This document shows positions 9,609-43,449 of a DNA stretch of 64,000 nucleotides, piece after piece. The notes below the pieces were generated by a model. It did no database searches, had not been told where the DNA came from, and saw only the letters and a program-made list of their open reading frames with translations. The position numbers were made by a program, and so were the translations under genes. This DNA is from Mucilaginibacter sp. (GTDB lineage: Bacteria; Bacteroidota; Bacteroidia; Sphingobacteriales; Sphingobacteriaceae): the NCBI GenBank assembly GCA_043739405.1, contig JAYUEE010000011.1:36708-100707 (forward strand), given 5' to 3'. Within the stretch, counting starts at the first letter, position 1. Each line of letters starts with the position of its first letter.

Positions 9609-9659
9609 GAAACATAATTATTTGTCCGCGGTACCACATTTTTTTTACCTTTATCTTCA

Positions 9660-10112: not shown

Positions 10113-10181
10113 AAGTTTATATTTGATTTTGCATTGTATTAGTTTTCTTCTCATCTTTCAATTCAAATTAATTCATATTGC

Positions 10182-10493
10182 ATGTACCTCAACAACACCT
10201 TCGTACACCATGTACATTTCTGGCTCAAAAACAAAGACGATAAGGCCAAACTGATAGAGGGCCTCAAAACACTTATCCCCATAACACACATCCGCGATAT
10301 GCATATCGGCGTACCTGCCGATACCAATCGTGATGTGATAGACCGCTCCTACGACGTGTCTCTGTTACTGCTTTTTAATACTTTGGAGGAAGAAGAAGCC
10401 TATCAGCACGATCCAACCCATGTAATTTTTGCGGAACAATACGCCAAGCCATTATGTGCAAAAGTGGTTGTGCAGGATAATATTAATATTTAA
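10182..10493 (+). CDS. Dabb (stress-responsive alpha/beta-barrel) family protein
   Basis: 103 aa. Start FVHHVHFWLK and the later YQHDPTHVIF fit the Dabb dimeric a/b barrel pattern. Confidence 0.65.
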   Translation: MYLNNTFVHHVHFWLKNKDDKAKLIEGLKTLIPITHIRDMHIGVPADTNRDVIDRSYDVSLLLLFNTLEEEEAYQHDPTHVIFAEQYAKPLCAKVVVQDNINI

Positions 10494-10564
10494 TTCGCTA
10501 AAGGCCACCTTTTTATAGAGATTATCTTTATAAATATTATCTTTAGGCAACTCTTATCACAAAG

Positions 10565-12634: not shown

Positions 12635-12824
12635 CTCATAGTCTAAGCACCAATAAATATTCCCATTGTTACAAACCTGGTCGCGTTTTGTGAAAAAACC
12701 GCCACAGCGAACAAGCAAAACATCGAATAATGGCACTGGCATGAAATTTGGGTTGTGAGCGCAATTTGATACTTAATATAACTTAACCCTAACTTACTAT
12801 CAATCAACCACAACCCTCACAACA

Positions 12825-14909: not shown

Positions 14910-14940
14910 AACACCTTTAACATTTTATTGTTGAGTAGGT

Positions 14941-15825: not shown

Positions 15826-15846
15826 TTTTACGTACTTTCATAACGT

Positions 15847-25800: not shown

Positions 25801-26596
25801 ATTCAACTATCAAATAATAAGGTGCTTTATAGGCTATCTGGTCAAACGCCTGCGTGCGGTCTGAATAAAATCCGAACGAATAATCTACGGTATCACCCGG
25901 CAAACCCAGCCATTCCCAGCGGTTATTGGCATCGTCAAAATTCCAGCCCGCTTCATCGCCGTAGGAGTGATTGGAAAGCAGCAAATTTGGTGATGCAGCT
26001 GCCATTTCACCAACGTCATTGTTAAAATCGTAGGATTGCAGGGTAGTGGCATTAAAAGCCATCCCCTTTACGGGAGCATAAACACCTTTTGCGAGCATGG
26101 TACCACTTACATGGGTGGCGTGGTCTATTACGGTGGAGTTGTTGTCCCCGATTGTAATTGCTTTACCTGCAAATTCCTGGTGTGCCTTATATACCCAACC
26201 GCCATCCCAGATCGCTAATTTATTATTCAAAAATGCACTTGAGCCGGATAAATTCAATCCTAGCGAACCACCAGGCTGCACGGCTGTAGTATTTGTAGTT
26301 GCAGCGGATATAATGTTGTCATCGGTGATCAAATAAATAGGGAAACCCAATTTATTAACCCCTTGCAGGGATAAAAAACCGCCGTTTTTTGTTTTCCTGC
26401 TCACGGGCCATCCATATAGATGCGCAAGTGCGAGGGCTTTTTGATGGGCCGATAGATAAGTTGTATTGGCTTTGGCAGATAAAGCATCCAGTTCCCTTTT
26501 TTTATCCGGCGATACCAACACCTGCTGGCAAAAAGCTTCCCCGGTAACAAAAAATAAAAAAATGCCTGTAAGTAGTGAAGTAAATCTTATCCTCAT
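22859..26596 (-). CDS. S8 (subtilisin-like) serine peptidase, multidomain, with T9SS type A C-terminal sorting domain
   Basis: 1245 aa with a signal peptide. Triad contexts are AIWDGG (Asp), DHATHVSGTM (His) and SGTSQAAPNVTGS (Ser). A long beta-sandwich region follows. The C-terminus reads LFPVPANGQLNVVF...GTYVLKLL...KVIIDR. Confidence 0.85.
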   Translation of the reverse strand: MRIRFTSLLTGIFLFFVTGEAFCQQVLVSPDKKRELDALSAKANTTYLSAHQKALALAHLYGWPVSRKTKNGGFLSLQGVNKLGFPIYLITDDNIISAATTNTTAVQPGGSLGLNLSGSSAFLNNKLAIWDGGWVYKAHQEFAGKAITIGDNNSTVIDHATHVSGTMLAKGVYAPVKGMAFNATTLQSYDFNNDVGEMAAASPNLLLSNHSYGDEAGWNFDDANNRWEWLGLPGDTVDYSFGFYSDRTQAFDQIAYKAPYYLIVESAGNARGNTGPAVGADYYGFQSASNQTFVDKGPRPANISSNNSYDCISTTGNAKNILTVGAINPLPYGPTSSQNISTTFFSSWGPTDDGRVKPDIVANGLNVLSCGSASPTSYITLSGTSQAAPNVTGSLYLLQEYYGKKNGGVFMRSATLKGLACHTAFDAGNIGPDYIYGWGLLDMKGAAQAVTDNGTKSIIKENTLTQGQTQTLNVVASGNGPLVATIAWTDPEGNITPDGTINDRTPKLVNDLDIRISDGTNTFFPWVLDPNNPSVAATKGDNIRDNVEQVYILGAIPGRAYTITVSHKGTLNSGSQAYSLIATGVGGAAYCASGPLSSADSRINNVTLSNLNNTPPAGCTAYSDFTNLTVQLEQGKTYPLSLTLGTCGADFNKIAKVFIDWNGDGTFAPGELVATTPVLSSTGTYTTNITVPGTVTPGNYSLMRVVLTETTDPSTILACGNYAKGETQDYRVQFLQTSTDAGAIAVVSPASGGSCSGAVPVTVTIKNYGSSPLNAIPVVVTITAANGTVTTFNGTYTSTLAPSAQDNFTFSTPFNISPGTTYTITAATNLAGDLVPGNNQVADTVTMPSPPVASALNANYCNSSNAWLLSGIGDGELLWYHNNTDVIPFAYGNPTIITQAPINNTYYVGLNDFSGTVGPAAKTAFTAGGYNQFTPAMNVFTRIPIIISRARLYIGNSGKITFSVADSTGEVVSSTTINAVATSTNPQPGAQADDPNDTGQVYDLNLLLPSAGLYSISASYDNTATIYRNNGGVTGYPFKIGDVVSIVSNTATSSTDTAYYKHFYYFFYDMHLMSPGCASVAKQAVSVINPIITQNGTVLSSNFTAGNQWYLDGVAIGGATGQTYTPTQSGNYRVDVPLSNGCIAQSANFVYVVLSANPGANDIGLTLFPVPANGQLNVVFAAKNAASMDLSLVNSAGQPTYSEQKILPAGNFSTVINVSQLPPGTYVLKLLLNQKKYTRKVIIDR

Positions 26597-27549: not shown

Positions 27550-30500
27550 ATGAAAATTTTGAAAATACATTTACTACATATATTATTTACTACCAGCCTA
27601 CTATGCCTATTCGGTATGAACAGCTATGCCCAAACCACATATGATTGGTTAGGAACAGGTGCTCCGGGTAATAGACAAGACTGGACCAACGTGAAAAACT
27701 GGCGATCAACAACTGGTGGAGTAACTACCAATCCGGCAACCACCTACCCCGGGCAAAGCGGATCGACCGATATCGTTAACATCGGCGTAAATGTCACGTT
27801 TCACGCCGTTGGCCTTCAGCCTGTAATAAACACAGGCGCGACCATTAACATAGCTTCGCTTAATATGGGCGACAACATGGTAACGGTTGGGAATCAGTGG
27901 TCAATAATATTAACGATAAACGGGACATTGAATATCACCGGTGCCTTCACACAAATGCACAGCACGGTTGGTACGGCGGGTTCAGGAAATACTGCTGTTA
28001 CCCGGCCCATTCAAAATTATCTTATTGGTTCAGGCACTATGACCTGTGGTTCTATTGTAATGGGGGACAATACCGTGCCAGCGGCCAGCAATGTGGTTAA
28101 TGCTACAGGTTTTAAAATGGGCAGTAATGGCGCCGGTGGTTCGACACTAACAGTAATAGATAACGGTGATTTTATTCTCAACTCACCGGGCAGCAAAGAC
28201 GCTAGCAATAATATTTTAAGCGAGAGTTTTAGTGAGTTCTCATTTGCTGCAGGTACATTAAGCATTACTGGCCAGATCAAAATAACTGATATTGCGGCTC
28301 CATATGTTGTTCCCTCTCCTTCGGTAATTTATACACCCCTGGCATGGTTTTCCATGGACCTTTTTGCCAATGCTGATAGTCCCGTTTTAAACTTATACAA
28401 TGCGTCACCATTGTCAATTCAAACAGGCAACAACAGAAATAGCGTCGATTTTTATAATATAAACGCTTCTGGCGGTACCGGTACATCTACTGTTAATTAT
28501 GCTGGTACAGGTGCAACGCAGGATATTCCCGTATATAAAAACAACGGCACTGTGTATAGTTTTGTGGAGACTAACCCAAGCGTCTACCAGAATGTTACGT
28601 TTTCCGGCGCAGGGACTAAATCAGTATCAGCAAGTGCGAGTTCAGGTACGTTTTCTGTTGCAGGTAATTTCACCCTTGCGGCTGGCACCGAAACGGTCAA
28701 CGTTTCGACAAATACTCCTATACTAACGATAGGGGGGAACTACTCCTCTGCAAGTGGCACAAACCTGATTAAAAGCGATGCGGCAGCTTTAACAATACCT
28801 GGCACAACAACTAACGGAGGTACGTTTACCCATTCAGGCGGTGCAGCTATTACCTTTACCGGCGCATTTACTAATACAGCCACGGGCATTTACAACCAGA
28901 CAGGGAGCGGTACGGTTACCGCGAGCAGCACAACAAGCAATGCGGGTACTTATAATCAATCGGGCACCGCACTTGCCACTTTTACAGGCGCGGTAACCAA
29001 TACAGGTACCATCAATCAAACCAATACAGGTAACATTTTATTTTCGGCCGCTTTTACCAATTCAGGTTCAGGTTCGGTACTATCACAAACCGGTGGCGCA
29101 ACAATAAATTTCGCCAATACCGCTTCCAATGACGGTACCATTACCCAAAACAATGCCAGCGGGATATTCAATTTTAACAATACATTTTCTAATACCCTTA
29201 GCGGCTCAAAATTTACTTTGACCACGGGCACCTCTAATTTCCTCAATTCGTATAGTAATAGCGGCACATTCAGGCAAACCGGCGGTACGGTTAACTTTAA
29301 CCAGCCTACTTCACAAAGTTTAACTGATAATAGTACGTCCTCACCCGGCACGTCATTAACAGCGGCGTTTGGCGGAACCACGTTTAGTAATGTTAATATG
29401 AAAAACGGGGGAACGATTGCCATGTCTGGAACAGGGCGATTCTATATTTCAGACGCAGGTTTTCTGAATATGAGTAATAATACAACACTGGCTGCCGGCG
29501 GTGTATTAACCTTAATTTCTGATGCAAGCGGTTCTGCGACAGTGCCAGCGATACCCACAGGCTGCAGCATTACTGGCAATGTAACCGTGCAGCGCTATAT
29601 ATCTGCAAACAGGGCTTACCGCCTGATTTCGTCGCCCGTTTTTGCCGGCAACGATGGTACAAACAATTATTACAGCGTAAATTATTTGTTAACTAATTCT
29701 GTGGTAACAGGTGACGGCGGCGGCCCTTTCAGCAAAGCTGGCAACCCGACGTTGTACCTATGGCGCGAAAATATTGTACCTCAAAATACATCCTTTTTTA
29801 GTGGAAATTTCAGGGGTGTAGCCAATATTAGTAGCCCTGCCTCTTATGGCATGGATGATGCCGCTTACCCGACAACCAATATACCTGTTGGTAATGGTTA
29901 CCTGTTTTATTACAGGGGAAGTATTAAACAGGCCAGCCTTGCTGCGCTAACTACCGCCGGTGCGGCAGCAACAACTGACACGTTAAATGCCACAGGTACC
30001 TTAAACCAGGGGAACATAACCGTACATGACTGGTACACGCCAGCTTCGGCCAACCTTGGTTGGACGACAACAAACGCGGGAAACGCTTCCATCCAGGGTA
30101 TTAACCTGGTTGGTAATCCTTATGCAAGCGCTATTGATTGGGATAAGATAGATTCGGTAAGCAGCGCAGGGGCCATTTATACTCAGAATGTAGCTCCGTT
30201 CAGTTACCAGCTTGTCCCATCCGGGCTGCAGGGTAGCGGGAACTACAATGTATACAGAGCAGGTTCAGGAGGAATCGGCACCCAGGGCACAGCTAACAGT
30301 AATATTATCCCCAGCGGCGAGGGCTTCCTGATACAAGCGGAGAACGCATCTGCTTCCATAACTTTCAGCGAAGCAGCAAAATTAAATACAGTGGTAACCG
30401 GGAGTAGCTTATATCTTGCAAAAAAAATACCTTCTGTTACCCAACCGCAGTTTCTGCGGCTGCAACTATCTATGGATTCAATAAATACAGACGGAACAAT

Positions 30501-31437
30501 AATCAGCTTTGTAGCTAATGCCAAAACAAGCTTTAACAAAGCAGAAGATGCACATTACCACTCAGGCACAGGCAAAGTGAACCTGGCAAGTCTTTCAAGT
30601 GACAATCAGCCCCTGGCCATCAACCAGCTTCCCTTAGCTTTAAAGGGCGACACCATAAAGCTAAAGGTTGGCGCTACAGCAAGCGGTAATTATACGTTGA
30701 ATCTGAAATCGATAACAGGCATTCCGCAGATCTACGACGTGTGGCTTAAGGATGCACATACCAAAGATTCGGTTAATTTGCGTACCACCGCTACTTATAG
30801 CTTTACCATTAAGACCACCGACACCTCTACTTTCGGTTCAAATCGCTTTTCGCTGGTGATTGTACAGGACCCCGATTTGGCTTACAAACTATTAAGCTTT
30901 GATGCGGCAAAGGCCGGCAATAACGATAAACAGGTACAGGTAACCTGGAAAAGCATAAACGAACAAAACTATACACATTTCACTGTTGAGCGTAGTAACG
31001 ATAACGGGAAGACTTTTGATGTGATTGGCGGCATGCTTTCATCAAACGCCGGGACTTACTCTCTTTTGGATAAGAGCCCGCTGAAAGGCGCTAACCTGTA
31101 TCGTTTGAAACAGCTTGATTTTAACGATAACATCACCTATTCAAGTGTGGTGGAAGTTGCATTTAACGGCAACAATAATATAACCGGGCATTTAAGCTGT
31201 TACCCTAACCCAGCCTTTACTGTCATCCACTTAAGTTTTGACCCGAAAGACCCGGGGAAAACCAGTTACGATGTTAAAGTTACAAACAGCAGCGGCATGA
31301 TCGTCAGGTTCGCCGTGATAACCGAACCTAACTGGCAGGCAAGTGTAAGCAATCTGCTTACCGGTACGTACCTGATACAGGTAACGGACAAGAAAGATGG
31401 CAGCGTAATTGGACAGACAAAATTTGTGAAACTATAA
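27550..31437 (+). CDS. Giant T9SS-sorted surface protein, paralog 1 (PATR-like beta-solenoid head + conserved tail + type A CTD)
   Basis: 1295 aa. Signal peptide ...SYA/Q. N-terminal YDWLG...WTNVKNW motif. About 20-aa repeats such as TFTGAVTNTGTINQT. The conserved tail starts at VTVQRY (nt 29581). The CTD reads CYPNPAF...GTYLIQV...KFVKL. Confidence 0.85.
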   Translation: MKILKIHLLHILFTTSLLCLFGMNSYAQTTYDWLGTGAPGNRQDWTNVKNWRSTTGGVTTNPATTYPGQSGSTDIVNIGVNVTFHAVGLQPVINTGATINIASLNMGDNMVTVGNQWSIILTINGTLNITGAFTQMHSTVGTAGSGNTAVTRPIQNYLIGSGTMTCGSIVMGDNTVPAASNVVNATGFKMGSNGAGGSTLTVIDNGDFILNSPGSKDASNNILSESFSEFSFAAGTLSITGQIKITDIAAPYVVPSPSVIYTPLAWFSMDLFANADSPVLNLYNASPLSIQTGNNRNSVDFYNINASGGTGTSTVNYAGTGATQDIPVYKNNGTVYSFVETNPSVYQNVTFSGAGTKSVSASASSGTFSVAGNFTLAAGTETVNVSTNTPILTIGGNYSSASGTNLIKSDAAALTIPGTTTNGGTFTHSGGAAITFTGAFTNTATGIYNQTGSGTVTASSTTSNAGTYNQSGTALATFTGAVTNTGTINQTNTGNILFSAAFTNSGSGSVLSQTGGATINFANTASNDGTITQNNASGIFNFNNTFSNTLSGSKFTLTTGTSNFLNSYSNSGTFRQTGGTVNFNQPTSQSLTDNSTSSPGTSLTAAFGGTTFSNVNMKNGGTIAMSGTGRFYISDAGFLNMSNNTTLAAGGVLTLISDASGSATVPAIPTGCSITGNVTVQRYISANRAYRLISSPVFAGNDGTNNYYSVNYLLTNSVVTGDGGGPFSKAGNPTLYLWRENIVPQNTSFFSGNFRGVANISSPASYGMDDAAYPTTNIPVGNGYLFYYRGSIKQASLAALTTAGAAATTDTLNATGTLNQGNITVHDWYTPASANLGWTTTNAGNASIQGINLVGNPYASAIDWDKIDSVSSAGAIYTQNVAPFSYQLVPSGLQGSGNYNVYRAGSGGIGTQGTANSNIIPSGEGFLIQAENASASITFSEAAKLNTVVTGSSLYLAKKIPSVTQPQFLRLQLSMDSINTDGTIISFVANAKTSFNKAEDAHYHSGTGKVNLASLSSDNQPLAINQLPLALKGDTIKLKVGATASGNYTLNLKSITGIPQIYDVWLKDAHTKDSVNLRTTATYSFTIKTTDTSTFGSNRFSLVIVQDPDLAYKLLSFDAAKAGNNDKQVQVTWKSINEQNYTHFTVERSNDNGKTFDVIGGMLSSNAGTYSLLDKSPLKGANLYRLKQLDFNDNITYSSVVEVAFNGNNNITGHLSCYPNPAFTVIHLSFDPKDPGKTSYDVKVTNSSGMIVRFAVITEPNWQASVSNLLTGTYLIQVTDKKDGSVIGQTKFVKL

Positions 31438-31477
31438 CCGTAAGAACCCAAAAACAATTTAATTACTATACCAGATC

Positions 31478-31509
31478 AGGCCGGCTTGAGGAATCAGGCC
31501 GGCTTTTTT
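31478..31509 (+). terminator. Rho-independent terminator after paralog 1
   Basis: AGGCCGGC - TTGAGGAATCAG - GCCGGCTT followed by a T-run. It is homologous to the terminator after paralog 2. Confidence 0.65.
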
Positions 31510-31613
31510 ATAGGCAGCCATTAGGGATATAAAGTTTACGGTAAATAATATCGTTTAATACGCTTCAAAAAAACGTCACTATGTCCTGCTAAACAACACC
31601 TTATACTTTAAAA

Positions 31614-31647
31614 ACGTGGGAAAACTTACCCAATATGGGGGAATATT
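31614..31647 (+). promoter_or_regulatory. Conserved upstream boxes ACGTGGGAAAACTT ... GGGGGAATATT, ~223 nt before paralog 2
   Basis: Aligns with 27335-27367. The offset from ACGTGGG to the AATATT core is 28 nt here and 27 nt there. Confidence 0.45.
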
Positions 31648-31836
31648 GACACAGCAATAATACTTCAAGTGGCGGTTTTTAGAAAAAACGAAAAACTTTT
31701 AGTTTTTTTTCTTACGTCCCTGCTTTAGAAATAGATAAAATCCTAATAATTAAATATTTCCGGCGATTACTTGCATGATTTTTGTCGTATACGTTGGCCC
31801 TCTACGGCCCATTCAGTAAAAGCAGTCATATACCCT

Positions 31837-34800
31837 ATGAAAATATTGGTAAAACTTGTACGCTTTATATTTCTTATAAGTGTTCTGGTATGCCTTTTCG
31901 GAATTAACAGCTATAGCCAAACCGTTTATGATTGGACGGGTCTGATAAATACTAATTGGACAAACGTCGGTAACTGGCAGGTAGGGGGTGTTGCAGCAAC
32001 TGTCTACCCCGGACAAACGTCTTCAACAGATATCGCTGATTTCGGTGTTAACCACAGCTATTTCGGTCATAATCAGCCTGTAATAAATAGCGGTAACAAT
32101 ATTACCATAGCTTCGCTAAATATGGGCGATAATGGCTGGCAGGATCTGCTTTCGACAACACCCCAACCAGGCAGAACAGGTAGTACCGGTTACGAAATGA
32201 ATTTGAGAGTAAATGGCATCCTTACCATCACCGGTACATTTACACAAATACATAGCACCCAGGGTATAGCTTTATCGGGCGAACAAGTTAACGACGGCTC
32301 AAATGCACCTTACACTTACAGTATTCAGAATGCCCTGGTTGGTTCGGGCATCATTAACTGCGGCTCCTTTACAGTCGGAGATGGTACCACACCTGCAAAT
32401 AACTATGTTATCGGCATTACCCGGGTTAAGGTAGGCTCAGCCTCTACATTTACCATAAATATTGCAGGCGACCTCACGTGCTATACCCCGATAAGGGGCG
32501 ATGGTACCGGCGCCAATAACATCATCAGCGAAAATTTTGCTGAACTTTCATTTGTTGGTGGTACGATCAATCTCAGCGGCCAGTTAAAATTAATGGAAAG
32601 CACGACCGCATTTACTGCCCAATGGACACCACAATATTCCCCTTTGGCGTCTTATTCGATGGACCTTTTTAAGACCGCCGATAGCCCCACCATTAATTTT
32701 TTTAATGCCACCCCGGTATCCATCCAAATCGGGGCAGTCAGAAATGGCTGTGACTTTTATAATATAGTTACTACTGGGGGTACGGGTACAACAAATGTTA
32801 ACTACGTTAATACAGGTGTGGCACAGGATGTGCCTATTTACCGAACAGGGGGAACGATTTATAATTTTATTGACCACACCCCCTCTGTTTATAATAATGT
32901 TGGTTTTGGCGGAAATGGAACGAAATCAGTGTCCCCTACGAATGGCACGTTTTCAGTAAATGGCCAGTTGATCGGTTCGACACTTTACGGCGGCAACTTT
33001 ACACTGGCGGCCGGTAATGAAATCGTTGACATTTCAACAAATAATCCCATATTAACAATCGGGCAAAATTATTCATCCGGTACCGGAAGCACACTCACCA
33101 AGAGCAACACATCGGCTTTAACCATACCGGGCACTACCAACAACGGTGGTACTTTTAACCATTCCGGCAACGCGACAATTACGCTTACCGGGGCATTCAA
33201 CAATTCGGGCGTTTATAATCAAACAGGCGGAGGAGCCGTTACCGCAAACAGCACAACAAATAATACGGGCATTTATAACCAATCGGGCACGGGGCAGCTC
33301 ACTTTTACCGGCGCGGTCACCAATATAAATACCATCAATCAAACCAGCAGCGGCAACATCCTGTTCAGCAATACATTTTACAATTCAGGTTCATCTTCCT
33401 CGTTCTCACAAACGGGTGGCGGAACTTCAACCTTTACCGGCGCGGTTACCAATGACGGGCAAATAAGTCAAAACGGTACCGGCGTGCTTACCTTTAACAA
33501 CACCTTTAGTAATACCCTTGGCGGCTCGGCATTTAGTGTCAGTTCAGGCATCACTAACTTTAATAACACCTATACCAATAATGGTACGTTTACCCAAACC
33601 GGCGGAACGGTTAATATAAATCAATCCGGCGCGCAAAGCTTGATCGACAACAGCGCTGGTGGTACTACTTTCAGTAATGTCTTCTTTCAAAACGGCGGTA
33701 CAAAAACGCTGTCAGGCATAGGCGGTTTTTTTATCTCGGATATTGGTGTGCTCAATATGGCTGCTAGTACTACCCTTGCATCAGGCGATATTTTGACTAT
33801 TAACTCTGACGTCGACGGGTCTGGCACGGTAGCAGCGATACCATCGGGCTGCAGTATTACGGGTAATGTAACTGTACAGCGTTATATATCAGCAAACAGG
33901 GCCTATCGTTTAATGTCTTCGCCGGTTTTTGCAGCTAATGACGGTACAAACAATTATTACAGTATAAATTATTTGCTTGCCAATACGGTTATAGAAGGTG
34001 ACGGAGGCGGGCCCTATACCAAACCAGGGAATCCTACTCTTTATTTATGGCGCGAAAATATTGTGCCGCAATACACCACTTTCCTTAATAGTAATTACAG
34101 GGGCATCAGCGATATTAGTGACCCTGCCTCTTATGGTATGGATGATGCCGCGTACCCTACGACCAACATCCCGGTAGGTAACGGTTATTTATTCTTTTAT
34201 CGCGGCAGTACCAACCAGGCCAGCGTTGCAGATCTGACCATCCCCGGAGCACCCTCGACAACCGATACCTTAAGTGCTGTGGGGACTTTGAACCAGGGCA
34301 ATGTAACTGTGCACGACTGGTATACCCCGGGATCAGCCAACCTCGGCTGGACAACCACAAATGCCGGCAATGCTTCGGTACAGGGAATTAACCTGATGGG
34401 TAACCCGTATGCAAGCTCTATCGACTGGGATAAAATAGACTCTGTTGTCAGTACCGGCCCAATATACGTACAGCACCTTGCTCCATTCAGCTACCAGCTT
34501 ATACCAACTGGCCTCCAGGGGGCCGGAAACTATAATGTTTACCAGGCCGGCACTGGCGGTGTTGGCACAGTAGGCACGGCCAACAGTAACATAATAGCCA
34601 GCGGCGAGGGATTCTTAGTCCAGGCCCTTAGCGCATCCGCTTCGATAACTTTCAGCGAATTAGCAAAATCAAATACGGTAGTCACAGGCGCCAATTTGTA
34701 TATGGCCAAAAAAATGCCGGCTGCTAACCCACCTCAATTCTTGCGGTTGCAACTGGCAAAGGATAGTATAAACACCGATGGTATTATAATTCGCTTTGCG

Positions 34801-35721
34801 CCTAACACACAATCGAAATTTAATCCTGCCGAGGACGCGCACTACCATAAAGGTTTAGGTAAAGTGAGCCTGGCAAGTCTTTCCAGTGACGACCAGCCGC
34901 TCGCCATCAACCAGCTTCCTTTAGCGTTAAAGGGCGATACGATAAAGCTTAATGTCGGTGCCAGGGCAAACGGTAATTATACTCTAAATCTGAAATCAAT
35001 AACCGGGGTGCCTCAAATCTATGCCGTTTGGCTTAAAGATGCGCACAACAAAGATTTGGTGAATATGCGCACGACCGCGTCTTACAGCTTTGCCATCGAT
35101 ACTGCTGATACAACCACTTTTGGTTCCAGCCGATTTTCGCTGATGATCCTGCAGGACCCTGCTTTGGCTTACAAATTATTAAGCTTTGATGCGACAAAGG
35201 CCGGCAACGACAATAAACAGGTGCAATTAACCTGGAAAACCAAAAACGAAGAAAATTATACGAATTTCACCGTTGAACGCAGCAACGATAATGGGAAACA
35301 TTTTGATATCGTCGGCGGCATGCTTTCATCCGGCGTTGGTTCTTACAGCTTGGTGGACAAAGATCCGCTAAAAGGCCACAACCTGTATCGTTTAAAACAA
35401 TTGGATTTTAACAATACCGCCACCTATTCCAACCTAGTTGAAATTGACTTTAATGGCAACAACGATAGCGGACATTTAAGCTGTTATCCCAACCCTGCCT
35501 TTAGCGACATTCATTTAAGTTTTGACCCTAAAGTACCGGGGAAAACCAGTTACGATGTTAAAGTGACAAATAGCAGCGGCATGATCGTAAGGTACGCCGT
35601 AATAACCGAACCAGATTGGCAGGCAAATGTAAGTAACCTGCTTACCGGCACCTACCTGATACAAGTGACCGATAAGAAAGACAATAGTGTGGTGGGACAG
35701 GCTAAATTTGTAAAACTGTAA
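31837..35721 (+). CDS. Giant T9SS-sorted surface protein, paralog 2
   Basis: The listed ORF begins at TTG 31771. I start at ATG 31837 (MKILVKLVRFIFLISVLVCLFGINSYS/Q), which aligns with the paralog 1 N-terminus. 1294 aa. The tail starts at VTVQRY (nt 33868) and the CTD ends KFVKL. Confidence 0.85.
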   Translation: MKILVKLVRFIFLISVLVCLFGINSYSQTVYDWTGLINTNWTNVGNWQVGGVAATVYPGQTSSTDIADFGVNHSYFGHNQPVINSGNNITIASLNMGDNGWQDLLSTTPQPGRTGSTGYEMNLRVNGILTITGTFTQIHSTQGIALSGEQVNDGSNAPYTYSIQNALVGSGIINCGSFTVGDGTTPANNYVIGITRVKVGSASTFTINIAGDLTCYTPIRGDGTGANNIISENFAELSFVGGTINLSGQLKLMESTTAFTAQWTPQYSPLASYSMDLFKTADSPTINFFNATPVSIQIGAVRNGCDFYNIVTTGGTGTTNVNYVNTGVAQDVPIYRTGGTIYNFIDHTPSVYNNVGFGGNGTKSVSPTNGTFSVNGQLIGSTLYGGNFTLAAGNEIVDISTNNPILTIGQNYSSGTGSTLTKSNTSALTIPGTTNNGGTFNHSGNATITLTGAFNNSGVYNQTGGGAVTANSTTNNTGIYNQSGTGQLTFTGAVTNINTINQTSSGNILFSNTFYNSGSSSSFSQTGGGTSTFTGAVTNDGQISQNGTGVLTFNNTFSNTLGGSAFSVSSGITNFNNTYTNNGTFTQTGGTVNINQSGAQSLIDNSAGGTTFSNVFFQNGGTKTLSGIGGFFISDIGVLNMAASTTLASGDILTINSDVDGSGTVAAIPSGCSITGNVTVQRYISANRAYRLMSSPVFAANDGTNNYYSINYLLANTVIEGDGGGPYTKPGNPTLYLWRENIVPQYTTFLNSNYRGISDISDPASYGMDDAAYPTTNIPVGNGYLFFYRGSTNQASVADLTIPGAPSTTDTLSAVGTLNQGNVTVHDWYTPGSANLGWTTTNAGNASVQGINLMGNPYASSIDWDKIDSVVSTGPIYVQHLAPFSYQLIPTGLQGAGNYNVYQAGTGGVGTVGTANSNIIASGEGFLVQALSASASITFSELAKSNTVVTGANLYMAKKMPAANPPQFLRLQLAKDSINTDGIIIRFAPNTQSKFNPAEDAHYHKGLGKVSLASLSSDDQPLAINQLPLALKGDTIKLNVGARANGNYTLNLKSITGVPQIYAVWLKDAHNKDLVNMRTTASYSFAIDTADTTTFGSSRFSLMILQDPALAYKLLSFDATKAGNDNKQVQLTWKTKNEENYTNFTVERSNDNGKHFDIVGGMLSSGVGSYSLVDKDPLKGHNLYRLKQLDFNNTATYSNLVEIDFNGNNDSGHLSCYPNPAFSDIHLSFDPKVPGKTSYDVKVTNSSGMIVRYAVITEPDWQANVSNLLTGTYLIQVTDKKDNSVVGQAKFVKL

Positions 35722-35761
35722 CCGCGAATAATCAGAAACAATCTAATTGCCATAACGGGTT

Positions 35762-35792
35762 GGCCGACTTGAGAAATCAGGTCGGCCTTTTT
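35762..35792 (+). terminator. Rho-independent terminator after paralog 2
   Basis: GGCCGAC - TTGAGAAATCAG - GTCGGCC followed by TTTTT. The loop matches the paralog 1 terminator and the stem differs by a compensatory pair. Confidence 0.7.
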
Positions 35793-36123
35793 GTGCTTCT
35801 TCTATCGCAATAATTAATGCCTAAAAGGTTAGTTAAATAAAACCGATCTATGTATATTTCTCAACATTTTAACATTTGTCGTAGTGATGGTATTCTCCTT
35901 TCGGGAATCTTACCAACCCTCGCTATTAATTAATAATTACCAATATTAATCAATGAATATTATATTAATTATTAATACATAATTACAATTATTATTTAAT
36001 TATAACGAAATATATAATTGCAACTTAGCTACTTATGTTTCCGTAAAACACTATTTTCAATAGTTTAAAGCAAAAATTTCTCAAAAAAAAATCCTTAACT
36101 TCGACTTTAAATACCAAAAAACC

Positions 36124-39100
36124 GTGCTGTTTTCGAAAAAGATATTGTTGTATTTTGGGGCCATATTTACCGTAAATTCTGGTATTTTCTCCGCTTCGGC
36201 GCAGGCCCCTGCTATTTCTTATAGCACACCAACTAATGTATATACTACCGGTGTTGCTATCACTGCATTAACCCCAACCAATACTGGCGGGGCGGTGCCA
36301 GCAACCGTCTATGGCACCGTTTCAACTTATGCCGGGAGTACTGCAGGTACAGCCGGCACCACAAATGCGTCAGGTACTGCTGCGCGGTTCAATTCGCCAA
36401 GGTGGGTAACATTTGATGGATCAGGTAATATGTTCGTGACTGATGCCGCCAACCAGGAAGTGAGGAAAATAGTTGTCTCGACAGCGGCCGTAACATTACT
36501 TGCCGGAAGCACTACCGGCGTTACGGGAACGACCAATGCCACCGGATCAGCCGCCCTTTTCAATGGACCTTATGCCTGCACAGATGATGGCGCAGGAAAC
36601 TTATATGTAGCTGATTTTACCAATAACGAAATACGAAAGATAGTTGAATCCACAGGAGCTGTAACCTTATTTGCAGGTAGCCCAACCAGCGCATCGGGTA
36701 CAACTAACGCCACAGGGAACGCCGCGCTTTTTTTCAACCCGGCTGGTATCGTATATGACCCGGTAAATAACGTTTTTTACATAAGTGACTTTAGCAATAA
36801 CCAGATCAGGAAAATGACGACGGCCGGTGTTGTGACATTATTTGCTGGCAGTGCCGCAGGTACTGCCGGTTCAGCAGACGGAACCGGTTCGGCGGCTACA
36901 TTCACCGGTCCAAACGGTATAGCAGTGGATGCTTCGGGCAATGTATATGTTGCTGACCAAAACAACAATGAGATCAGGAAGATAACTCCTCTCGGCGCAG
37001 TAACAACTTTTGCGGGCAATACGACAGCTGGTTCAGCGGACGGCACGGGAACCGCAGCATCTTTCACTACTCCAAGGGGGATTTGCGTAGATATTTCAGG
37101 AAATCTTTATGTCACCGACAGTGGCAATGACCTCATTAGGATGATTACGCCAGCAGCGGTGGTAACTACCGTGGCTGGAACAGGGGCCTCAGGGTACGTG
37201 AACGGTGTTGGTACGGTAGCGTCATTCAATGCGAGCAGGGGGATTGCAGTGGACCAATCTTCAGGGCATATTTATATATCGGACTACAGTAATAACGCTA
37301 TCAGGAAGATGATAGGCACCGGTTACAGCATATATCCTACTACTTTACCCACAGGCCTAACCTTTAACAGCACCACAGGTGTCATATCAGGTACGCCTAC
37401 TGCAACACAAGCTGCTACCACATATACCATAACTGGATTTAACGTTTCCGGCAGCAGCAGCACTACCGTAAGCATAGCTGTCGGGCAAACCGTGGCATGG
37501 ACAGGAGGCGCCAATTCGACTGCCTGGGCAACCGGTGGTAATTGGAGCACAGGGTCACAACCGGGCGTAAATGATGCTGTAAGTATAGGGGTTTCAAATT
37601 ATACAAAAAATGTGCAGCCGTCTATAACCGCTGCAAATGTCATTATAAATTCATTAACCTTAAGCAATGCGCACAGTGTTACTTTAACAGTAACGTCGCC
37701 GAGAACGTTGACGATTAATTCTGCGTTGACAGTTAGCGCAGGTACAGAAACTATAACGGGAACAGGCGCGGTTAATATCGCTCCGGGAGGGGTAGTTAAT
37801 ATACCAGGAACAGCATTAAATCTCACGCTGACAGGCCTTTTCACGCTGCAGTCCAGTGCTGCGGGCGATGCTTCAATCGGGCAGATCACAGCTACATCAA
37901 TTACAGGAAGCACAGCTAGTTCAATTAATGTACAGCGTTACTTAACCGGTGGGGCCTCCAAATACCGCGGGTTTCGTTTAATATCTTCTCCTGTGACTTC
38001 AGGGAGCGGCGATTACACCATAAACTACTTGAAAAATTCAATTTATATTACATCCACCATTACTACCGGTGGATTTGATAATGTGGTTGCGGCTAATCCA
38101 ACCATATACCTATACCGGGAAAATCTGACTACTCCTTCAAACACCACGTTTACAGGCAGTAATTTCAGGGCGGTTACCAATATAACCACAAGCCCGCTTT
38201 ACGGCGTGAGTGATGCCACGTACCCAACAACCAATATCCCTGTCGGCAACGGGTTTTTATGTTTTTTCAGAGGCGACAGGAATATTGGGCAGACTTTCGC
38301 CCAGGAAACAGTTACAACATATGTTCCTACCAGCACCACGCTGACTACCAGCGGCACTTTAAATATTGGGAATATTACTGTTAAAGACTGGTTTACTCCT
38401 GGATTATCAAACCTTAGTTACACGGCTGCTTCGCCATATGCTGGTTTCAACCTGGTAGGTAATCCCTATGCTTCACCCATTAACTGGGATACATTCCAGG
38501 GCACCTCAATAGCGACCGGTGGCATATATGGTACTTTTATAAATAATAATACAATGTATATTCTTGATCCCTCCAGCCATAATTATGGCGCTTATAAAGC
38601 GGGTTCAGGAGGTGTTGGGACAAACAACGCAACAAATATCATATCCAGCGGTCAAGGCTTTTTTGTTAAAGCGACGAGCACATCGGCGCAGTTGGTCTTT
38701 ACCGAATCGGCTAAAACAACTACTCAAAATACCGGTAGTAATTTAACTATGGGACGGCCCGTCAACTTGGCCAGCAATCAATATTTCCGTTTAAAATTAG
38801 CTAAAGATTCTGTCAATGTTGATGAAACAATGGTTCGTTTTAATAACCAGGCTACTACGAATTTTGATGAAACGCTTTACGCCGTTTACCGCCAGGGATA
38901 TGGTAGTGTAAGTTTATCCGGGCTGACAAGTGACAAGGTTAACTTTGCAATTGGCACTATACCGTTACCAAAGCAACAATCCGAAACCCTCGGGCTAAAT
39001 GTAAATGCCAATACTGACGGCATATATAGCCTAACCTTAAAAGACATTACCGCTGTACCACGCCTTTATGATGTATGGCTGATGGACGCCTACAAAAAGG

Positions 39101-39774
39101 ATTCACTGGAGATGCGGCAAAACAAAACTTATAACTTTAACATATATAAAAGCGACAGCGCAAGTTTTGGCCCTAAACGTTTTAGCCTGGTTATAAGGCA
39201 AAATACTGCTTACGCTTACCGGTTGCTAAGTTTTGCAGCCGCAAAAATACCTGTTGCCAGGCAAGTACAAATTACCTGGAACGCCGTTAACGAAGAGAAT
39301 TATACCAATTTTACGGTGGAGCGGAGTATTGATGGCGGTAAAACTTTTAATGTGCTGGGAGGCATAACTGCAACAGGAGCGAGCGAGTACACCATGACAG
39401 ATAAAAGTCCAGTATTAGGTCAAAACCTATATCGCCTTAAACAGGAAGACATCAATGGCACAATTACCTATTCAAGTGTTGTCAACATACAGTATTCTGA
39501 TCTAAGTAACAGTCTTGTCAGCAATAGACTTAGCATTTATCCAAACCCGGTAATTAATAATATAAGCCTTACTATCGCTGAGCAGGCGCCCGACAATACC
39601 TCTTATAATATCAAATTTATGAACAGCTCTGGTATTGTAATAAAACAGGTTTCATCGGCGCAACCAACCTGGCAGGGCAATGTTAGCAGCCTGCAACCAG
39701 GCACTTATATCGTACAAGTTTTGAACGGTAAAAATGAAACACTAATCGGTCAAACGAAATTCGTAAAGTTGTAA
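36124..39774 (+). CDS. Giant T9SS-sorted surface protein, paralog 3 (six NHL repeats + short head + conserved tail + type A CTD)
   Basis: 1216 aa. GTG start, with no in-frame ATG upstream. Signal peptide ...SASA/QA. Six repeats end in N(Q/N)E(V/I)RK(I/M). The tail starts at INVQRY (nt 37924). The CTD reads IYPNPV...GTYIVQV...KFVKL. Confidence 0.8.
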   Translation: MLFSKKILLYFGAIFTVNSGIFSASAQAPAISYSTPTNVYTTGVAITALTPTNTGGAVPATVYGTVSTYAGSTAGTAGTTNASGTAARFNSPRWVTFDGSGNMFVTDAANQEVRKIVVSTAAVTLLAGSTTGVTGTTNATGSAALFNGPYACTDDGAGNLYVADFTNNEIRKIVESTGAVTLFAGSPTSASGTTNATGNAALFFNPAGIVYDPVNNVFYISDFSNNQIRKMTTAGVVTLFAGSAAGTAGSADGTGSAATFTGPNGIAVDASGNVYVADQNNNEIRKITPLGAVTTFAGNTTAGSADGTGTAASFTTPRGICVDISGNLYVTDSGNDLIRMITPAAVVTTVAGTGASGYVNGVGTVASFNASRGIAVDQSSGHIYISDYSNNAIRKMIGTGYSIYPTTLPTGLTFNSTTGVISGTPTATQAATTYTITGFNVSGSSSTTVSIAVGQTVAWTGGANSTAWATGGNWSTGSQPGVNDAVSIGVSNYTKNVQPSITAANVIINSLTLSNAHSVTLTVTSPRTLTINSALTVSAGTETITGTGAVNIAPGGVVNIPGTALNLTLTGLFTLQSSAAGDASIGQITATSITGSTASSINVQRYLTGGASKYRGFRLISSPVTSGSGDYTINYLKNSIYITSTITTGGFDNVVAANPTIYLYRENLTTPSNTTFTGSNFRAVTNITTSPLYGVSDATYPTTNIPVGNGFLCFFRGDRNIGQTFAQETVTTYVPTSTTLTTSGTLNIGNITVKDWFTPGLSNLSYTAASPYAGFNLVGNPYASPINWDTFQGTSIATGGIYGTFINNNTMYILDPSSHNYGAYKAGSGGVGTNNATNIISSGQGFFVKATSTSAQLVFTESAKTTTQNTGSNLTMGRPVNLASNQYFRLKLAKDSVNVDETMVRFNNQATTNFDETLYAVYRQGYGSVSLSGLTSDKVNFAIGTIPLPKQQSETLGLNVNANTDGIYSLTLKDITAVPRLYDVWLMDAYKKDSLEMRQNKTYNFNIYKSDSASFGPKRFSLVIRQNTAYAYRLLSFAAAKIPVARQVQITWNAVNEENYTNFTVERSIDGGKTFNVLGGITATGASEYTMTDKSPVLGQNLYRLKQEDINGTITYSSVVNIQYSDLSNSLVSNRLSIYPNPVINNISLTIAEQAPDNTSYNIKFMNSSGIVIKQVSSAQPTWQGNVSSLQPGTYIVQVLNGKNETLIGQTKFVKL

Positions 39775-40050
39775 TATTTTTCCCCTATTTACTGATAAAT
39801 CGGAACGTTTTTGAACTCTATTTTCAAGATTTAAGCGATAAATCCTTCCTGAATTTTCAATCATGGTCCGGCTTGAGCCCTGGTGAAAAATAGTCGCTTT
39901 TTTTCTCATTTTTTTACAAAATCATAACGTGCTGTATATCAGCCAGCAACCAAAACTCATTTAATGTAATCCGCGTGTTTTAGGTCTTTTCACACTGAAC
40001 CTAATTAAAAAATCGCCGTAAAAGATTAGCTAAAGTGCTGATAATCTACT

Positions 40051-43000
40051 GTGAAAGCGATACTATATAGGTTCATATTAATTGTTTTACTGCTGGTTGT
40101 AATTGGCGGGAAGGCTTATAGTGTAACCACTTATGATTGGGTAGGCACAACTGCAACCTCAGGAGTTTATAATTGGAACAATAAATTAAATTGGCAGGTT
40201 GCCGGCGTTGCCGCTGCAACTATTCCCGGGCCAACAGATATTGTCCAAATAGCCGTAAATTCCTTCACAAACTACCCCACGGTTACCGATGCAGAATCAT
40301 GCGGGTCAATTGTATTCGGCACTTTTGACAACTTTACACTCACCGTGACCGGGGCCCTTACCGTTAGCGGAAATATCACCCAAAAAAACGACGCTAATTT
40401 TTATCAATATACCGTGTTGGCCGGAACCGGCACAATTACCTGCGGCAGCTTTACACTGGGTGATAATACCCAGCCGAATAGCGGGTTGGGAATAGTAAAC
40501 AATGTAAGCAGCCAGGTAGCCCAATTGAACATAAACGGTAACCTAACACTAAACTCTGTGGGCAACGCCACAGGCGATGGCATTGTGTACCCTTATTTCT
40601 CACTGGATGCAAACAAAATCACCCTTACCGGCCAAATTATAACTACAACTTTCAGCGGCCCGTTATCGGGAGGTGTGGGTGACCCGAATTTTCCTGGCTT
40701 AGGCCTTTTCCAGATGGATACGGGTGCCGCCGCTACAACACTCGAGCTTTTAAGCGCGACCCCTGTTTTAACGCCGATCACCAGCGGCTTTACAATCGAT
40801 TTTACCAACAATGGAGCCGGGACAGGAACTGTCCTATATGATGCGCCCCTGGGCACACAAACAATTTACACCACCGGAACAACCGGCCTGGGTATAAATA
40901 GCTATAATTACGATTACCTAACTTTTAGCGGGGCAAGTAAAAAAACAGTTAGTGGAGGTTCACTCACCATTGGCAATAACTGGACAACCGGCGGAGCAGG
41001 CGCAGTGGATTTAAACACCAATAACCCAACTATAACGGTAACAGGAAACTTAGTAAACACAACCAATATAACACAGGGATCGGGAAATATAACTATAACC
41101 AACATCCTGCAAAACAATTCAAACACTATCACGCTTGGTTCGGGCACATTTACCGTCGGCAATATTATGCAGATAAACGGTGGAACGGTAAGCACCGGTT
41201 CGGGTACATTAACAGTTTCAGGTACCTATCAGAACATTGGGGGAACATTGGTATGTGGCTCAGGCAGTGTAATATTTGATGGCAATTACACGAACAACAG
41301 CATTTTTACAGCCGGCACGGGAACTGTTTACTTTTCGGGTGCATCGCAAAATCTCGTCGATAACAGCACAGCCGGCACCATATTTAACAACGTAACGTTT
41401 AACTGCAGCGGAACCGCCACTATAACTGTGGGGATTGGTAATTTTTCCGTTTCAGCAACCGGGGTTCTGACAATGGTAAGCCCGGCAAAATTAGTAGCAG
41501 GAACAGCCACTACGGCTTACTTAACCTTAAACTCTAATGCAACTGGTTCCGCAACAATTGCTGCGATTTCCGGAACATCATTGATTACCGGCTTTGTCAA
41601 TGTGCAGCGCTTCATCACCGGTGGCAGCTCTATCTACAGGGGCTATCGTTTGTTATCGTCGCCAGTATATGCCAGTACAGTAAGCAGTAACAATGTTTTC
41701 AGTATCAACTATTTGCAAAACTCGGCATACCTCGCTGGATCAACGGGTGTTGCCGGAGGCTGGGATAAAACAGGAAACCCAACTATCTACCTTTACCGCG
41801 AAAATCTCGCGCCTGGCAATGCCAACTTTGTTGTTGGAAATTTCAGGGGCGTCAATAATATAACAGCCTCGCCGGGATACCAGCTTGATAACGAAGCAGG
41901 TACATTTAATATACCCGCGGGTAATGGCTATCTATTTTTCTTTCGCGGAAACCGGAGCACTTCATTGACAAGTAAAACCGTTTCGCCATACGCCACACCC
42001 GAAAATACCACTTTAACGGCGACTGGTGTATTGAACCAGGGACAAGTAACCGTGCACGACTGGTACACCCCTGCATCAGTAAATTTGGGCTATACAGTAA
42101 TGGCTGGAAACACCACGGTAAGGGGTTTCAACCTTATTGGGAACCCATATGCGAGCTCTATAGATTGGGATCAGCTTAATAACGTGACGACAACCACAGG
42201 TATATATGAGCAAGGGGTAAGTAATACCATCTATGTGTTCGACCCGGTGAGTAAAAATTATGGCGCCTACACCAAAGGCAGTGGTGGCGTGGGTACACAT
42301 AACACCAGTAATATATTGCCAAGCGGGCAAGCCTTTTTTGTGCAGGCCAGCGCCGCGACAGCCAAGCTGGTTTTTAACGAATCAGCAAAAGTAAACACAC
42401 AGGTTACAGGGGCAACCCTCCTGATGGGCCTGCCGGTTGACTATGCCGTGAATCAATATCTGCGCTTGCAATTAGCAAAAGACTCTGTCAATACCGATGA
42501 TATCATTGTTCGTTTTAAGGACAATGCCGTTACAACATACGATCCCAATGTTGATGGTCAATACAAACCGGGTTACGGAGCAGTAAACCTTTATAGCAGG
42601 TCGAGTGATGGTGTACCACTTGCGATCAGTGTCCTTCCTTTACCAAAAACGAGGGAAATTATACCGTTAACAGCCCAGGCTACCGCTAGTGGCACATACC
42701 AGTTTCAGCTGAAGAATATTGTTGCTATCCCAAAGATTTACAGTATCATGCTTACCGACGCTTATACAAAAGATTCAGTAAATATTCGTGAGAGCATTGT
42801 ATACAGTTTTTCAATCGATAAAACCGATACGAATTCTTACGGGCCCAACCGTTTTAAACTGGTTATAAGTCAAAACCCGGCTTACAATTACAGCTTATTG
42901 AATTTCAACGCTGTGCCGATCGAATCGGCAAGGCAGGTGCAATTGACATGGAAAACAGCCAACGAGGAGAATTACACCTATTTTACCGTTGAACGCAGCA

Positions 43001-43449
43001 ACGACAATGGGAATACTTTTAATGTAGTAGGCGGGATACAATCCCGCGGACAAGGAAGCTACTCCCTGCCTGATAAGAACCCAACTGCAGGGCTCAATCT
43101 TTACCGGCTGAAGCAAATCGACATCGATAATAATATCAGCTATTCAAAAGTAATACCTGTCGAATATTCAGCTTTGAGCAATAGCCTTGTTAATTATAAT
43201 ATAAACGTGTACCCTAATCCGGCTAGAAATGTCATCAATCTCGCTGTTACAAATATTACCAGTACACCCAGCAATAACTATAATATACGTATAACCAACA
43301 GCAGCGGCTTTGTTGTGAAAGACATAACGTCAGGGCAACCTAGCTGGCAGGGAAGTGTAAGCGATCTGCTCACCGGCACTTACATCATCCAGGTGGTGAA
43401 TACAAAAGATCAAACCCTGGTAGGGAAAGCCAAATTCGTAAAACTGTAG
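40051..43449 (+). CDS. Giant T9SS-sorted surface protein, paralog 4 (shorter solenoid head + conserved tail + type A CTD)
   Basis: 1132 aa with a GTG start and signal peptide ...KAYS/V. It has the TYDWVGT...NWNNKLNWQVAG motif. The tail starts at VNVQRF (nt 41596). The CTD reads VYPNPA...GTYIIQV...KFVKL. Confidence 0.8.
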   Translation: MKAILYRFILIVLLLVVIGGKAYSVTTYDWVGTTATSGVYNWNNKLNWQVAGVAAATIPGPTDIVQIAVNSFTNYPTVTDAESCGSIVFGTFDNFTLTVTGALTVSGNITQKNDANFYQYTVLAGTGTITCGSFTLGDNTQPNSGLGIVNNVSSQVAQLNINGNLTLNSVGNATGDGIVYPYFSLDANKITLTGQIITTTFSGPLSGGVGDPNFPGLGLFQMDTGAAATTLELLSATPVLTPITSGFTIDFTNNGAGTGTVLYDAPLGTQTIYTTGTTGLGINSYNYDYLTFSGASKKTVSGGSLTIGNNWTTGGAGAVDLNTNNPTITVTGNLVNTTNITQGSGNITITNILQNNSNTITLGSGTFTVGNIMQINGGTVSTGSGTLTVSGTYQNIGGTLVCGSGSVIFDGNYTNNSIFTAGTGTVYFSGASQNLVDNSTAGTIFNNVTFNCSGTATITVGIGNFSVSATGVLTMVSPAKLVAGTATTAYLTLNSNATGSATIAAISGTSLITGFVNVQRFITGGSSIYRGYRLLSSPVYASTVSSNNVFSINYLQNSAYLAGSTGVAGGWDKTGNPTIYLYRENLAPGNANFVVGNFRGVNNITASPGYQLDNEAGTFNIPAGNGYLFFFRGNRSTSLTSKTVSPYATPENTTLTATGVLNQGQVTVHDWYTPASVNLGYTVMAGNTTVRGFNLIGNPYASSIDWDQLNNVTTTTGIYEQGVSNTIYVFDPVSKNYGAYTKGSGGVGTHNTSNILPSGQAFFVQASAATAKLVFNESAKVNTQVTGATLLMGLPVDYAVNQYLRLQLAKDSVNTDDIIVRFKDNAVTTYDPNVDGQYKPGYGAVNLYSRSSDGVPLAISVLPLPKTREIIPLTAQATASGTYQFQLKNIVAIPKIYSIMLTDAYTKDSVNIRESIVYSFSIDKTDTNSYGPNRFKLVISQNPAYNYSLLNFNAVPIESARQVQLTWKTANEENYTYFTVERSNDNGNTFNVVGGIQSRGQGSYSLPDKNPTAGLNLYRLKQIDIDNNISYSKVIPVEYSALSNSLVNYNINVYPNPARNVINLAVTNITSTPSNNYNIRITNSSGFVVKDITSGQPSWQGSVSDLLTGTYIIQVVNTKDQTLVGKAKFVKL

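Follow-up and report, generated by a model that had tools for sequence, protein, structure and literature searches.

Four tandem genes for putative RemA-type adhesins in Mucilaginibacter and the large unnamed family of their C-terminal module

A 64,000-nucleotide stretch of a Mucilaginibacter sp. genome (contig JAYUEE010000011.1), referred to here as the window, carries at positions 27550-43449 four giant open reading frames (ORFs) in tandem on the + strand, which we call P1 to P4. Their predicted features support the view that all four products are cargo proteins of a type IX secretion system (T9SS) with a type A C-terminal domain (CTD), and they probably form a fixed repertoire of surface adhesins of the RemA type, being ordinary members of a large protein family. 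Each begins with a Sec signal peptide and continues with an N-terminal head, in which a W-x-G...W...NW sequence (the W-motif) precedes a solenoid, followed by a tail of nearly constant length, part of which is remotely homologous to the region preceding the CTD in the gliding adhesin RemA of Flavobacterium johnsoniae and in its homologue RemZ. The four genes are as follows.

27550-31437, + strand: P1, 1295 aa; signal peptide, W-motif, Thr/Gly/Asn/Ser-rich solenoid head up to nt 29580, tail
31837-35721, + strand: P2, 1294 aa from ATG 31837; W-motif, solenoid head, tail
36124-39774, + strand: P3, 1216 aa, GTG start; NHL blades, He_PIG-like segment, W-motif, short solenoid, tail
40051-43449, + strand: P4, 1132 aa, GTG start; W-motif, shorter solenoid head, tail

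The P2 ORF opens at TTG 31771, and the ATG at 31837 gives an N-terminus parallel to that of P1, to which P2 is 65% identical overall. The spacers measure 399 (P1-P2), 402 (P2-P3) and 276 nt (P3-P4); no ORF of at least 40 aa lies wholly within any of them, and an Rfam scan of the whole window found no RNA family anywhere. Signal peptides were read by eye in all four proteins (basic N-terminus, hydrophobic core, small-residue cleavage site), with cleavage predicted between SYA and Q in P1 (the end of the stretch NSYA), SYS and Q in P2, ASA and Q in P3, and AYS and V in P4. The residue following the predicted site is thus Gln in three of the four paralogs, which fits the 'Q-rule' of the Bacteroidetes. 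ORF calls, a Pfam scan and the residues read by eye therefore agree with the original prediction, which had described four same-strand giant ORFs with signal peptides and type A CTDs.

The tail opens with the motif (V/I)(T/N)VQR(Y/F), found in frame at nt 29581, 33868, 37924 and 41596, and from there to the stop codon it measures 618, 617, 616 and 617 aa in P1 to P4. This equal length had been noted from the same four motif positions, and it is not an artefact of anchoring by eye, as the tails are colinear in a MAFFT alignment with only 1-33 gap columns per pair. The tails of P1 and P2 are 79% identical, those of the other pairs 47-53%. Modelled with AlphaFold2 and 44 homologues, the P1 tail (mean predicted local distance difference test score, pLDDT, 86.9; predicted template modelling score, pTM, 0.75), contains four all-beta domains, and the corresponding parts of the genes are listed below them.

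Tail aa 1-270 (P1 model): domain A
Tail aa 291-430 (P1 model): domain B, a β-sandwich
Tail aa 436-528 (P1 model): Fn3-like domain C
Tail aa 538-618 (P1 model): CTD
29581-30873 (P1, 431 aa), 33868-35160 (P2), 37924-39207 (P3) and 41596-42879 (P4), + strand: tail core, domains A and B, to which the homology with RemA and RemZ applies
30883-31191 (P1) and from nt 35170 (P2), 39217 (P3) and 42889 (P4), + strand: Fn3-like domain C
31192-31434 (P1), about 35476-35718 (P2), 39526-39771 (P3) and 43198-43446 (P4), + strand: type A CTD

Domain C reads VQ.TW...NE.NYT.FTVERS.D.G..F ... NLYRLKQ in P1, and the CTD of the same protein reads YPNP ... GTYLIQV ... KFVKL. The type A CTD proposed for all four paralogs was confirmed by the Por_Secre_tail family (PF18962), which scores 31.3, 31.5, 34.1 and 33.3 bits in P1 to P4 (gathering cut-off 27); NCBIfam TIGR04183 is above its cut-off in P3 only. 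The core of about 430 aa formed by domains A and B is matched by no Pfam or NCBIfam model, either in the four proteins or in the 44 tails.

To define the wider family, a profile of the four P1-P4 cores was compared with 1.84 billion cluster representatives (clusters at 50% identity), yielding 8,199 matches at E <= 1e-3, 4,733 at E <= 1e-10 and 772 at E <= 1e-30. The family of domains A and B is therefore very large and no orphan, while being unnamed in Pfam and NCBIfam. Among the 150 best matches the full core is present in 137, of which 134 have 181-212 aa between its end and the C-terminus; the near-constant length of the tail is thus a property of the family rather than a peculiarity of this locus. 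In the apparently complete proteins among these 150, between 157 and 2987 aa precede the core. In giant members the W-motif lies some 340-490 aa upstream of the core, which indicates that the conserved chassis begins at the W-motif and that the variable part consists of N-terminal additions.

Head domains were surveyed with Pfam in 35 full-length members. The CTD was found in all 35, NHL in 12, He_PIG in 10, and LamG_3, Ig_7 and DUF2341 in three each, along with MBG_2, YDG, F5/8 type C, cadherin and PKD domains; no clear catalytic family was seen by Pfam in the heads of these proteins. Judging from these matches, the heads are binding and adhesion modules. Fusion of the same tail to other heads elsewhere, which the original prediction had suggested looking for, is the rule in this huge family. 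A separate homologue search returned only proteins of at most 751 aa, mostly N-terminally truncated calls, and head diversity was for this reason taken from the representative search and from the genome loci described below.

The link to characterised proteins came from profile searches against all chain sequences of the PDB. A profile of the 44 tails matched RemA (8gl6_D, aa 1090-1345, E 2.6e-20) and RemZ (8gl8_D, aa 760-1020, E 2e-19), all other matches being to the CTD only. A profile of 15 cores matched these two alone: RemZ at aa 708-1022 (E 6e-25), where profile positions 83-395 of 401 are covered, and RemA at aa 1070-1344 (E 2e-22). In both proteins the matched region ends just before the CTD. 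The RemA alignment also shows a W-motif, KVWNGNTNTDWNTASNW, and about 100 residues after it GNITYRRDT..RRYDFTYWSTPV (GNITYRRD...YWSTPV), which matches GNVTVQRY...YRLISSPV (SSPV) in the tails studied here. From these two elements it follows that the order W-motif, solenoid, A, B, CTD is common to RemA and P1-P4. The tail had not been recognised as a named family in the original prediction; this holds in that no Pfam or NCBIfam model describes it, but the tail is a remote homologue of the pre-CTD region of RemA and RemZ.

RemA (Fjoh_0808) and RemZ (Fjoh_0803) share with P1-P4 a Sec signal peptide, a type A CTD, a homologous module, some 300-350 aa long, immediately upstream of the CTD region, a W-x-G...W...NW motif with a short solenoid before that module, and binding-type domains at the N-terminal end. 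Their locus tags are five apart by gene number, which suggests clustered paralogs in F. johnsoniae too. RemA is a T9SS-secreted, PorV-dependent, mobile 'minor' gliding adhesin of the cell surface (PMC10202324, PMC9127263), and RemZ has been described as its homologue (PMC10994853). P1-P4 differ from both in having much longer solenoids, or an added NHL propeller, and they come from Sphingobacteriia whereas RemA and RemZ come from Flavobacteriia. SprB-type adhesins are likewise large, repetitive, T9SS-exported proteins of gliding Bacteroidota, but SprB has a type B CTD and needs a cognate carrier, SprF, encoded downstream (PMC12618676); P1-P4 have a type A CTD and unrelated repeats, and no PorP/SprF-like gene was found among the genes downstream of the array.

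The heads of the four paralogs, which measure 677, 677, 600 and 515 aa before the tail motif, contain the following elements.

27646-27702, + strand: W-motif of P1, opening the solenoid
31933-31977, + strand: W-motif of P2
36388-37311, + strand: six NHL blades of P3 (aa 89-396)
37345-37485, + strand: He_PIG-like segment of P3, recognised by eye; no Pfam match
37498-37545, + strand: W-motif of P3, WTGGANSTAWATGGNW (aa 459-474), after the NHL blades and the He_PIG-like segment
40138-40194, + strand: W-motif of P4

In P3, NHL (PF01436) matches at E 1.7e-27 with four scored stretches, and six blades were located by pattern at aa 89, 146, 203, 260, 314 and 368. The P3 head had been described as an NHL propeller, which is correct for its N-terminal part; it is not only that, however, as it also contains the W-motif and a solenoid of about 130 aa between W-motif and tail, which aligns weakly with both ends of the P4 head. 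Similarly, the claim that the heads differ in architecture is justified by the propeller added in P3 but was overstated, since W-motif, solenoid and tail form a chassis common to all four. Head identity is 58% between P1 and P2, 36-38% between either of these and P4, and 20-25% in pairs with P3. The Thr/Gly/Asn-rich heads show a weak periodicity of 20 or 42 aa. They and the W-motif resemble PATR repeats (PF12951), but membership of P1, P2 and P4 in that family, as put forward in the original prediction, had to be abandoned: PF12951 gives no match in P1-P4 at E <= 0.1 and none in the 35 surveyed members at E <= 0.001. P1-P4 further differ from PATR proteins in their T9SS export and in having no autotransporter barrel.

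Duplication within the array is old. In the tails of P1 and P2, 293 of the 457 nucleotide differences fall at third codon positions, and the proportions of nonsynonymous and synonymous sites that differ (pN 0.117 and pS 0.685) correspond to a dN/dS of 0.07; the differences being mainly synonymous, they point to an old duplication maintained under purifying selection, as had been suggested from the third-position excess. The heads of the same pair have a dN/dS of 0.14, synonymous sites are saturated between the two genes, and no sliding window along P1 and P2 has unusually high DNA identity. The longest stretch of DNA common to any copies is 286 nt at 82% identity, no inverted repeats were found in the array, and no recombinase gene adjoins it.

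The same conclusion on age emerges from a scan of one genome per species, which gave 72 loci with family genes (73 counting the window), all from Mucilaginibacter or from unclassified Sphingobacteriales/Bacteroidetes metagenome-assembled genomes (MAGs), the best core identity being 68%. Same-strand arrays of two to six family genes occur in 33 of the 73 loci, and several genomes have at least four separate loci. As in the window, a DUF4136 gene lies directly downstream of the array in 20 other loci, accompanied by NadE and GldB in 15 of them, by ATP synthase genes in 7-10 and by the upstream S8 peptidase in seven. Full-length orthologues of P4 (63-77% identity) are found in at least eight other genomes, always last in the array beside DUF4136, and full-length, NHL-bearing orthologues of P3 (52-70% identity) usually lie directly upstream of the P4-type gene; the best outside matches of P1 and P2 are 59-62% identical. 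The positional orthologues of P3 and P4 imply that the array is older than the divergence of these species and that each position has been conserved. Since the recurring neighbours merely mark one syntenic locus, no partner gene can be inferred from them, and DUF4136, NadE, GldB, ATP synthase and S8 peptidase were rejected as conserved partners, not being common to the family loci outside this synteny.

Two of the loci observations concern array size and decay. In a Mucilaginibacter MAG, contig NZ_DATJJC010000017.1 (327763-366839, where loci L013, L021 and L043 of our scan overlap) suggests a single same-strand array in which a tail-only fragment of 406 aa accompanies about seven full family genes. 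Several loci hold tail fragments, ORFs of 380-430 aa that cover only profile positions from about 231 or 283 to 429, which are likely to be pseudogene remnants.

The sequences flanking the individual genes include three elements.

31478-31505, + strand: terminator-like hairpin 40 nt after the P1 stop, a 12-bp stem followed by a T run
35762-35787, + strand: terminator-like hairpin after the P2 stop, homologous to that after P1
27330-27380 (P1) and about 31610-31660 (P2), + strand: conserved upstream block containing GGGGAATATT

As the two hairpins are homologous, the duplicated unit included its terminator. The sequence GGGGAATATT occurs twice before P1 (27339-27367, 19 nt apart) and once before P2 (31638-31647), and the block may be a promoter or other regulatory element; across the window the sequence is not clearly enriched (14 matches with at most one mismatch against about 7 expected). 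A sigma-70 promoter scan gave scattered matches and was not used, as its model does not cover Bacteroidota promoters. The terminators after P1 and P2, the conserved upstream block and the lack of inverted repeats point to independently transcribed genes, each of P1-P4 apparently being a separate transcription unit, and argue against a recombinational cassette.

Taken together with the RemA homology, these data lead us to propose the following arrangement. The Sec signal peptide would take each protein across the inner membrane, after which the type A CTD would be recognised by the PorV/SprA translocon, dependence on T9SS and PorV being predicted from sequence. Each exported protein would then present the same order of parts (W-motif, Thr/Gly/Asn-rich solenoid of variable length, A+B of about 430 aa, Fn3-like domain, CTD), in which A, B and the Fn3-like domain could serve as a cell-proximal base that retains and orients the protein on the surface, with the tail acting as a stalk or anchor, and the solenoid would be a spacer. 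Ligand specificity would lie in the distal N-terminal part, which in P1, P2 and P4 would be the bare tip of the solenoid and in P3 a predicted six-bladed NHL propeller with an Ig-like segment. The array itself arose through old tandem duplications, and its site in the chromosome (S8 peptidase, array, DUF4136-NadE-GldB) is conserved. That the copies have been kept by purifying selection as separate transcription units favours a fixed adhesin repertoire over a switching system.

Several observations weigh against this interpretation. The homology to RemA and RemZ is remote: it is seen only with a broad family profile, the four-sequence profile of P1-P4 alone finding nothing among the PDB sequences and a phmmer search of these with the P1 tail giving no meaningful match. 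RemA and RemZ are without the Fn3-like domain C, and P1-P4 for their part are without the SUEL/Gal_Lectin domain of RemA, no lectin family (SUEL-type Gal_Lectin included) being matched by Pfam in the four proteins at E <= 0.1. Shrivastava 2012, cited in PMC10994853, reportedly describes the lectin of RemA in its title. The solenoid heads have no family match, which leaves room for a catalytic beta-helix. Since only the CTD is resolved in the cryo-electron microscopy entries of RemA and RemZ (PMC10994853), there is no solved structure for domain A or domain B. Finally, many F. johnsoniae cargo proteins with a type A CTD are released, and RemA-HaloTag is found in spent medium as well (PMC12618676).

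The last point would suit an alternative in which P1-P4 are released rather than anchored, as soluble proteins or components of a matrix (in a biofilm or an S-layer-like coat, or as scavenging binders) whose tail, once the CTD is removed, would be a self-association or polysaccharide-binding module and not a surface base. The weak jelly-roll or cupin-like structural matches of domain A (see below) would also suit this explanation, that fold class being common in carbohydrate-binding modules. We nonetheless consider it unlikely, because the nearest characterised relative, RemA, is a cell-surface adhesin, because a module whose distance from the CTD stays constant across thousands of clusters fits a cell-proximal role, and because the tail is matched by no carbohydrate-binding family. 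Should the heads instead be enzymes, P1, P2 and P4 would be beta-helix lyases or hydrolases and P3 a lactonase- or arylesterase-like propeller, the tail would bind or display substrate, and the array would encode surface-displayed degradative enzymes. Right-handed beta-helices are indeed a common enzyme scaffold, and P3 has a marginal Arylesterase match (25 bits against a cut-off of 21.3, no stretch being significant alone) and an SGL match below its cut-off (21.5 against 26.3 bits). However, both lie under the much stronger NHL match, as is usual for cross-hits between propeller families, no enzyme family is matched in P1, P2 or P4 with Pfam or NCBIfam, and the heads of the 35 surveyed members carry domains of the binding type, all of which makes the enzymatic explanation quite improbable.

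A system of variation, in which recombination, gene conversion or on/off switching would produce alternative surface proteins, is suggested by tandem same-strand genes with a common tail and by a copy number that varies from one to at least six per locus between genomes. This explanation is largely refuted and in our view hardly credible: no DNA stretch shared by copies exceeds 286 nt (82% identity), pS is about 0.7 even for the closest pair, inverted repeats and an adjoining recombinase gene are lacking, and positional orthologues are conserved across genomes. The recombination cassette or invertible switch was accordingly rejected, and the word 'cassette-like' used in the original prediction cannot be retained in any recombinational sense, given also the separate terminators of P1 and P2. 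A fixed repertoire of RemA-type adhesins thus remains the interpretation we favour.

A more specific proposal concerns the core itself. RemA-HaloTag-CTD(RemA) forms both immobile and highly mobile foci, whereas SprB-HaloTag-CTD(RemA) is immobile (PMC12618676). From this contrast it would seem that something in RemA outside the CTD contributes to mobility, and the conserved A+B module is one candidate. Domains A and B could be the pair that holds adhesins with a type A CTD on the cell, perhaps coupling them to the gliding track or to an outer-membrane partner, which would explain why foci with the RemA CTD alone are immobile while those of RemA-HaloTag-CTD(RemA) are partly mobile. We put this forward as a rather unlikely but specific possibility, based on the lack of a domain model, the lack of a solved-structure relative of domain A, the fixed distance from the C-terminus, the occurrence in more than 8,000 Bacteroidota clusters and the matches to RemA and RemZ. 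If true, it would address how RemA-type adhesins are targeted to the motility machinery; retention of type A CTD adhesins and their route to that machinery are described as not known in a review (PMC10202324).

With the whole tail, Foldseek returned only generic Fn3/Ig strings from the PDB, at an uninformative TM-score of less than 0.2. Domain A modelled alone (pLDDT 85, pTM 0.86) had no significant PDB match (best E 0.39), the weak matches being jelly-roll or cupin-like, and a single match in BFVD, A0A8D9C8P8 (TM-score 0.57, E 5e-9). This entry, from an uncultured marine phage, is annotated as a 'putative hemin binding protein' and has 587 aa. Its length makes it most probably a tail-only fragment belonging to the P1-P4 tail family, either on a bacterial contig called viral or as a phage-borne copy of the module. 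We read it as a family member on a contig called viral and set it aside as a functional clue.

As individual genes, P1-P4 would be ordinary T9SS adhesin paralogs, new and distant members of the RemA-like adhesins with a type A CTD. As a useful by-product, their analysis defines a C-terminal module that is very large as a family and still unnamed (W-motif, solenoid, A, B, sometimes an Fn3-like domain, CTD). Through it RemA and RemZ, which have been studied experimentally, are connected with thousands of unannotated 'T9SS type A sorting domain-containing proteins'. A large common tail module without a domain model seems worth recording even if it will cause little surprise to a T9SS specialist; a model for it would improve annotation across the Bacteroidota, and the module is a concrete target for studying the retention of type A CTD adhesins on the cell and their access to the gliding machinery. 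For Mucilaginibacter, a randomly barcoded transposon sequencing (RB-TnSeq) study describes root colonisation and, in at least one member of the genus, gliding by means of T9SS and gld genes; the passages cited here name no adhesin (PMC13440311). Arrays such as P1-P4 are plausible, and probably redundant, candidates for adhesins in this genus.

The remainder of the window is ordinary chromosome, with genes for a PAS histidine kinase, photolyases, gamma-glutamyltranspeptidase, NadE, the ATP synthase operon, PBP1 and UvrC. T9SS and gliding genes (PorW/SprE and GldB) lie at most 11 kb from the array.

22859-26596, - strand: S8 subtilase of 1245 aa with a GEVED domain and a T9SS type A CTD, upstream of the array and divergent from it
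45938-46981, + strand: GldB (E 3e-104)
54649-57552, + strand: PorW/SprE equivalog (E 2e-172; 575 bits, cut-off 250)

A 64-aa ORF located between the S8 peptidase gene and P1 (26874-27068, + strand) encodes a signal peptide and a short Cys-containing stretch followed by PLD, a hydrophobic helix and an RRKR tail; it has no NCBIfam match and looks like a sorting-signal miniprotein of the PEP-CTERM style. Another tandem pair of exported paralogs (10565-12634 and 12825-14909, + strand; 689 and 694 aa, 57% identical, with signal peptides) has no Pfam or NCBIfam match. The low-GC end of the window (GC 0.345 over 62-64 kb) contains an IS1/IS240-like DDE transposase ORF (62099-62965, - strand). Two genes of the photolyase/cryptochrome family (4617-5921, - strand, and 16760-18073, + strand) enclose NAD-binding epimerase-like genes and genes for a TetR_C_23-domain protein and an ABC1 kinase, and this photolyase-flanked block (4617-18073) may be a light- or UV-response neighbourhood.

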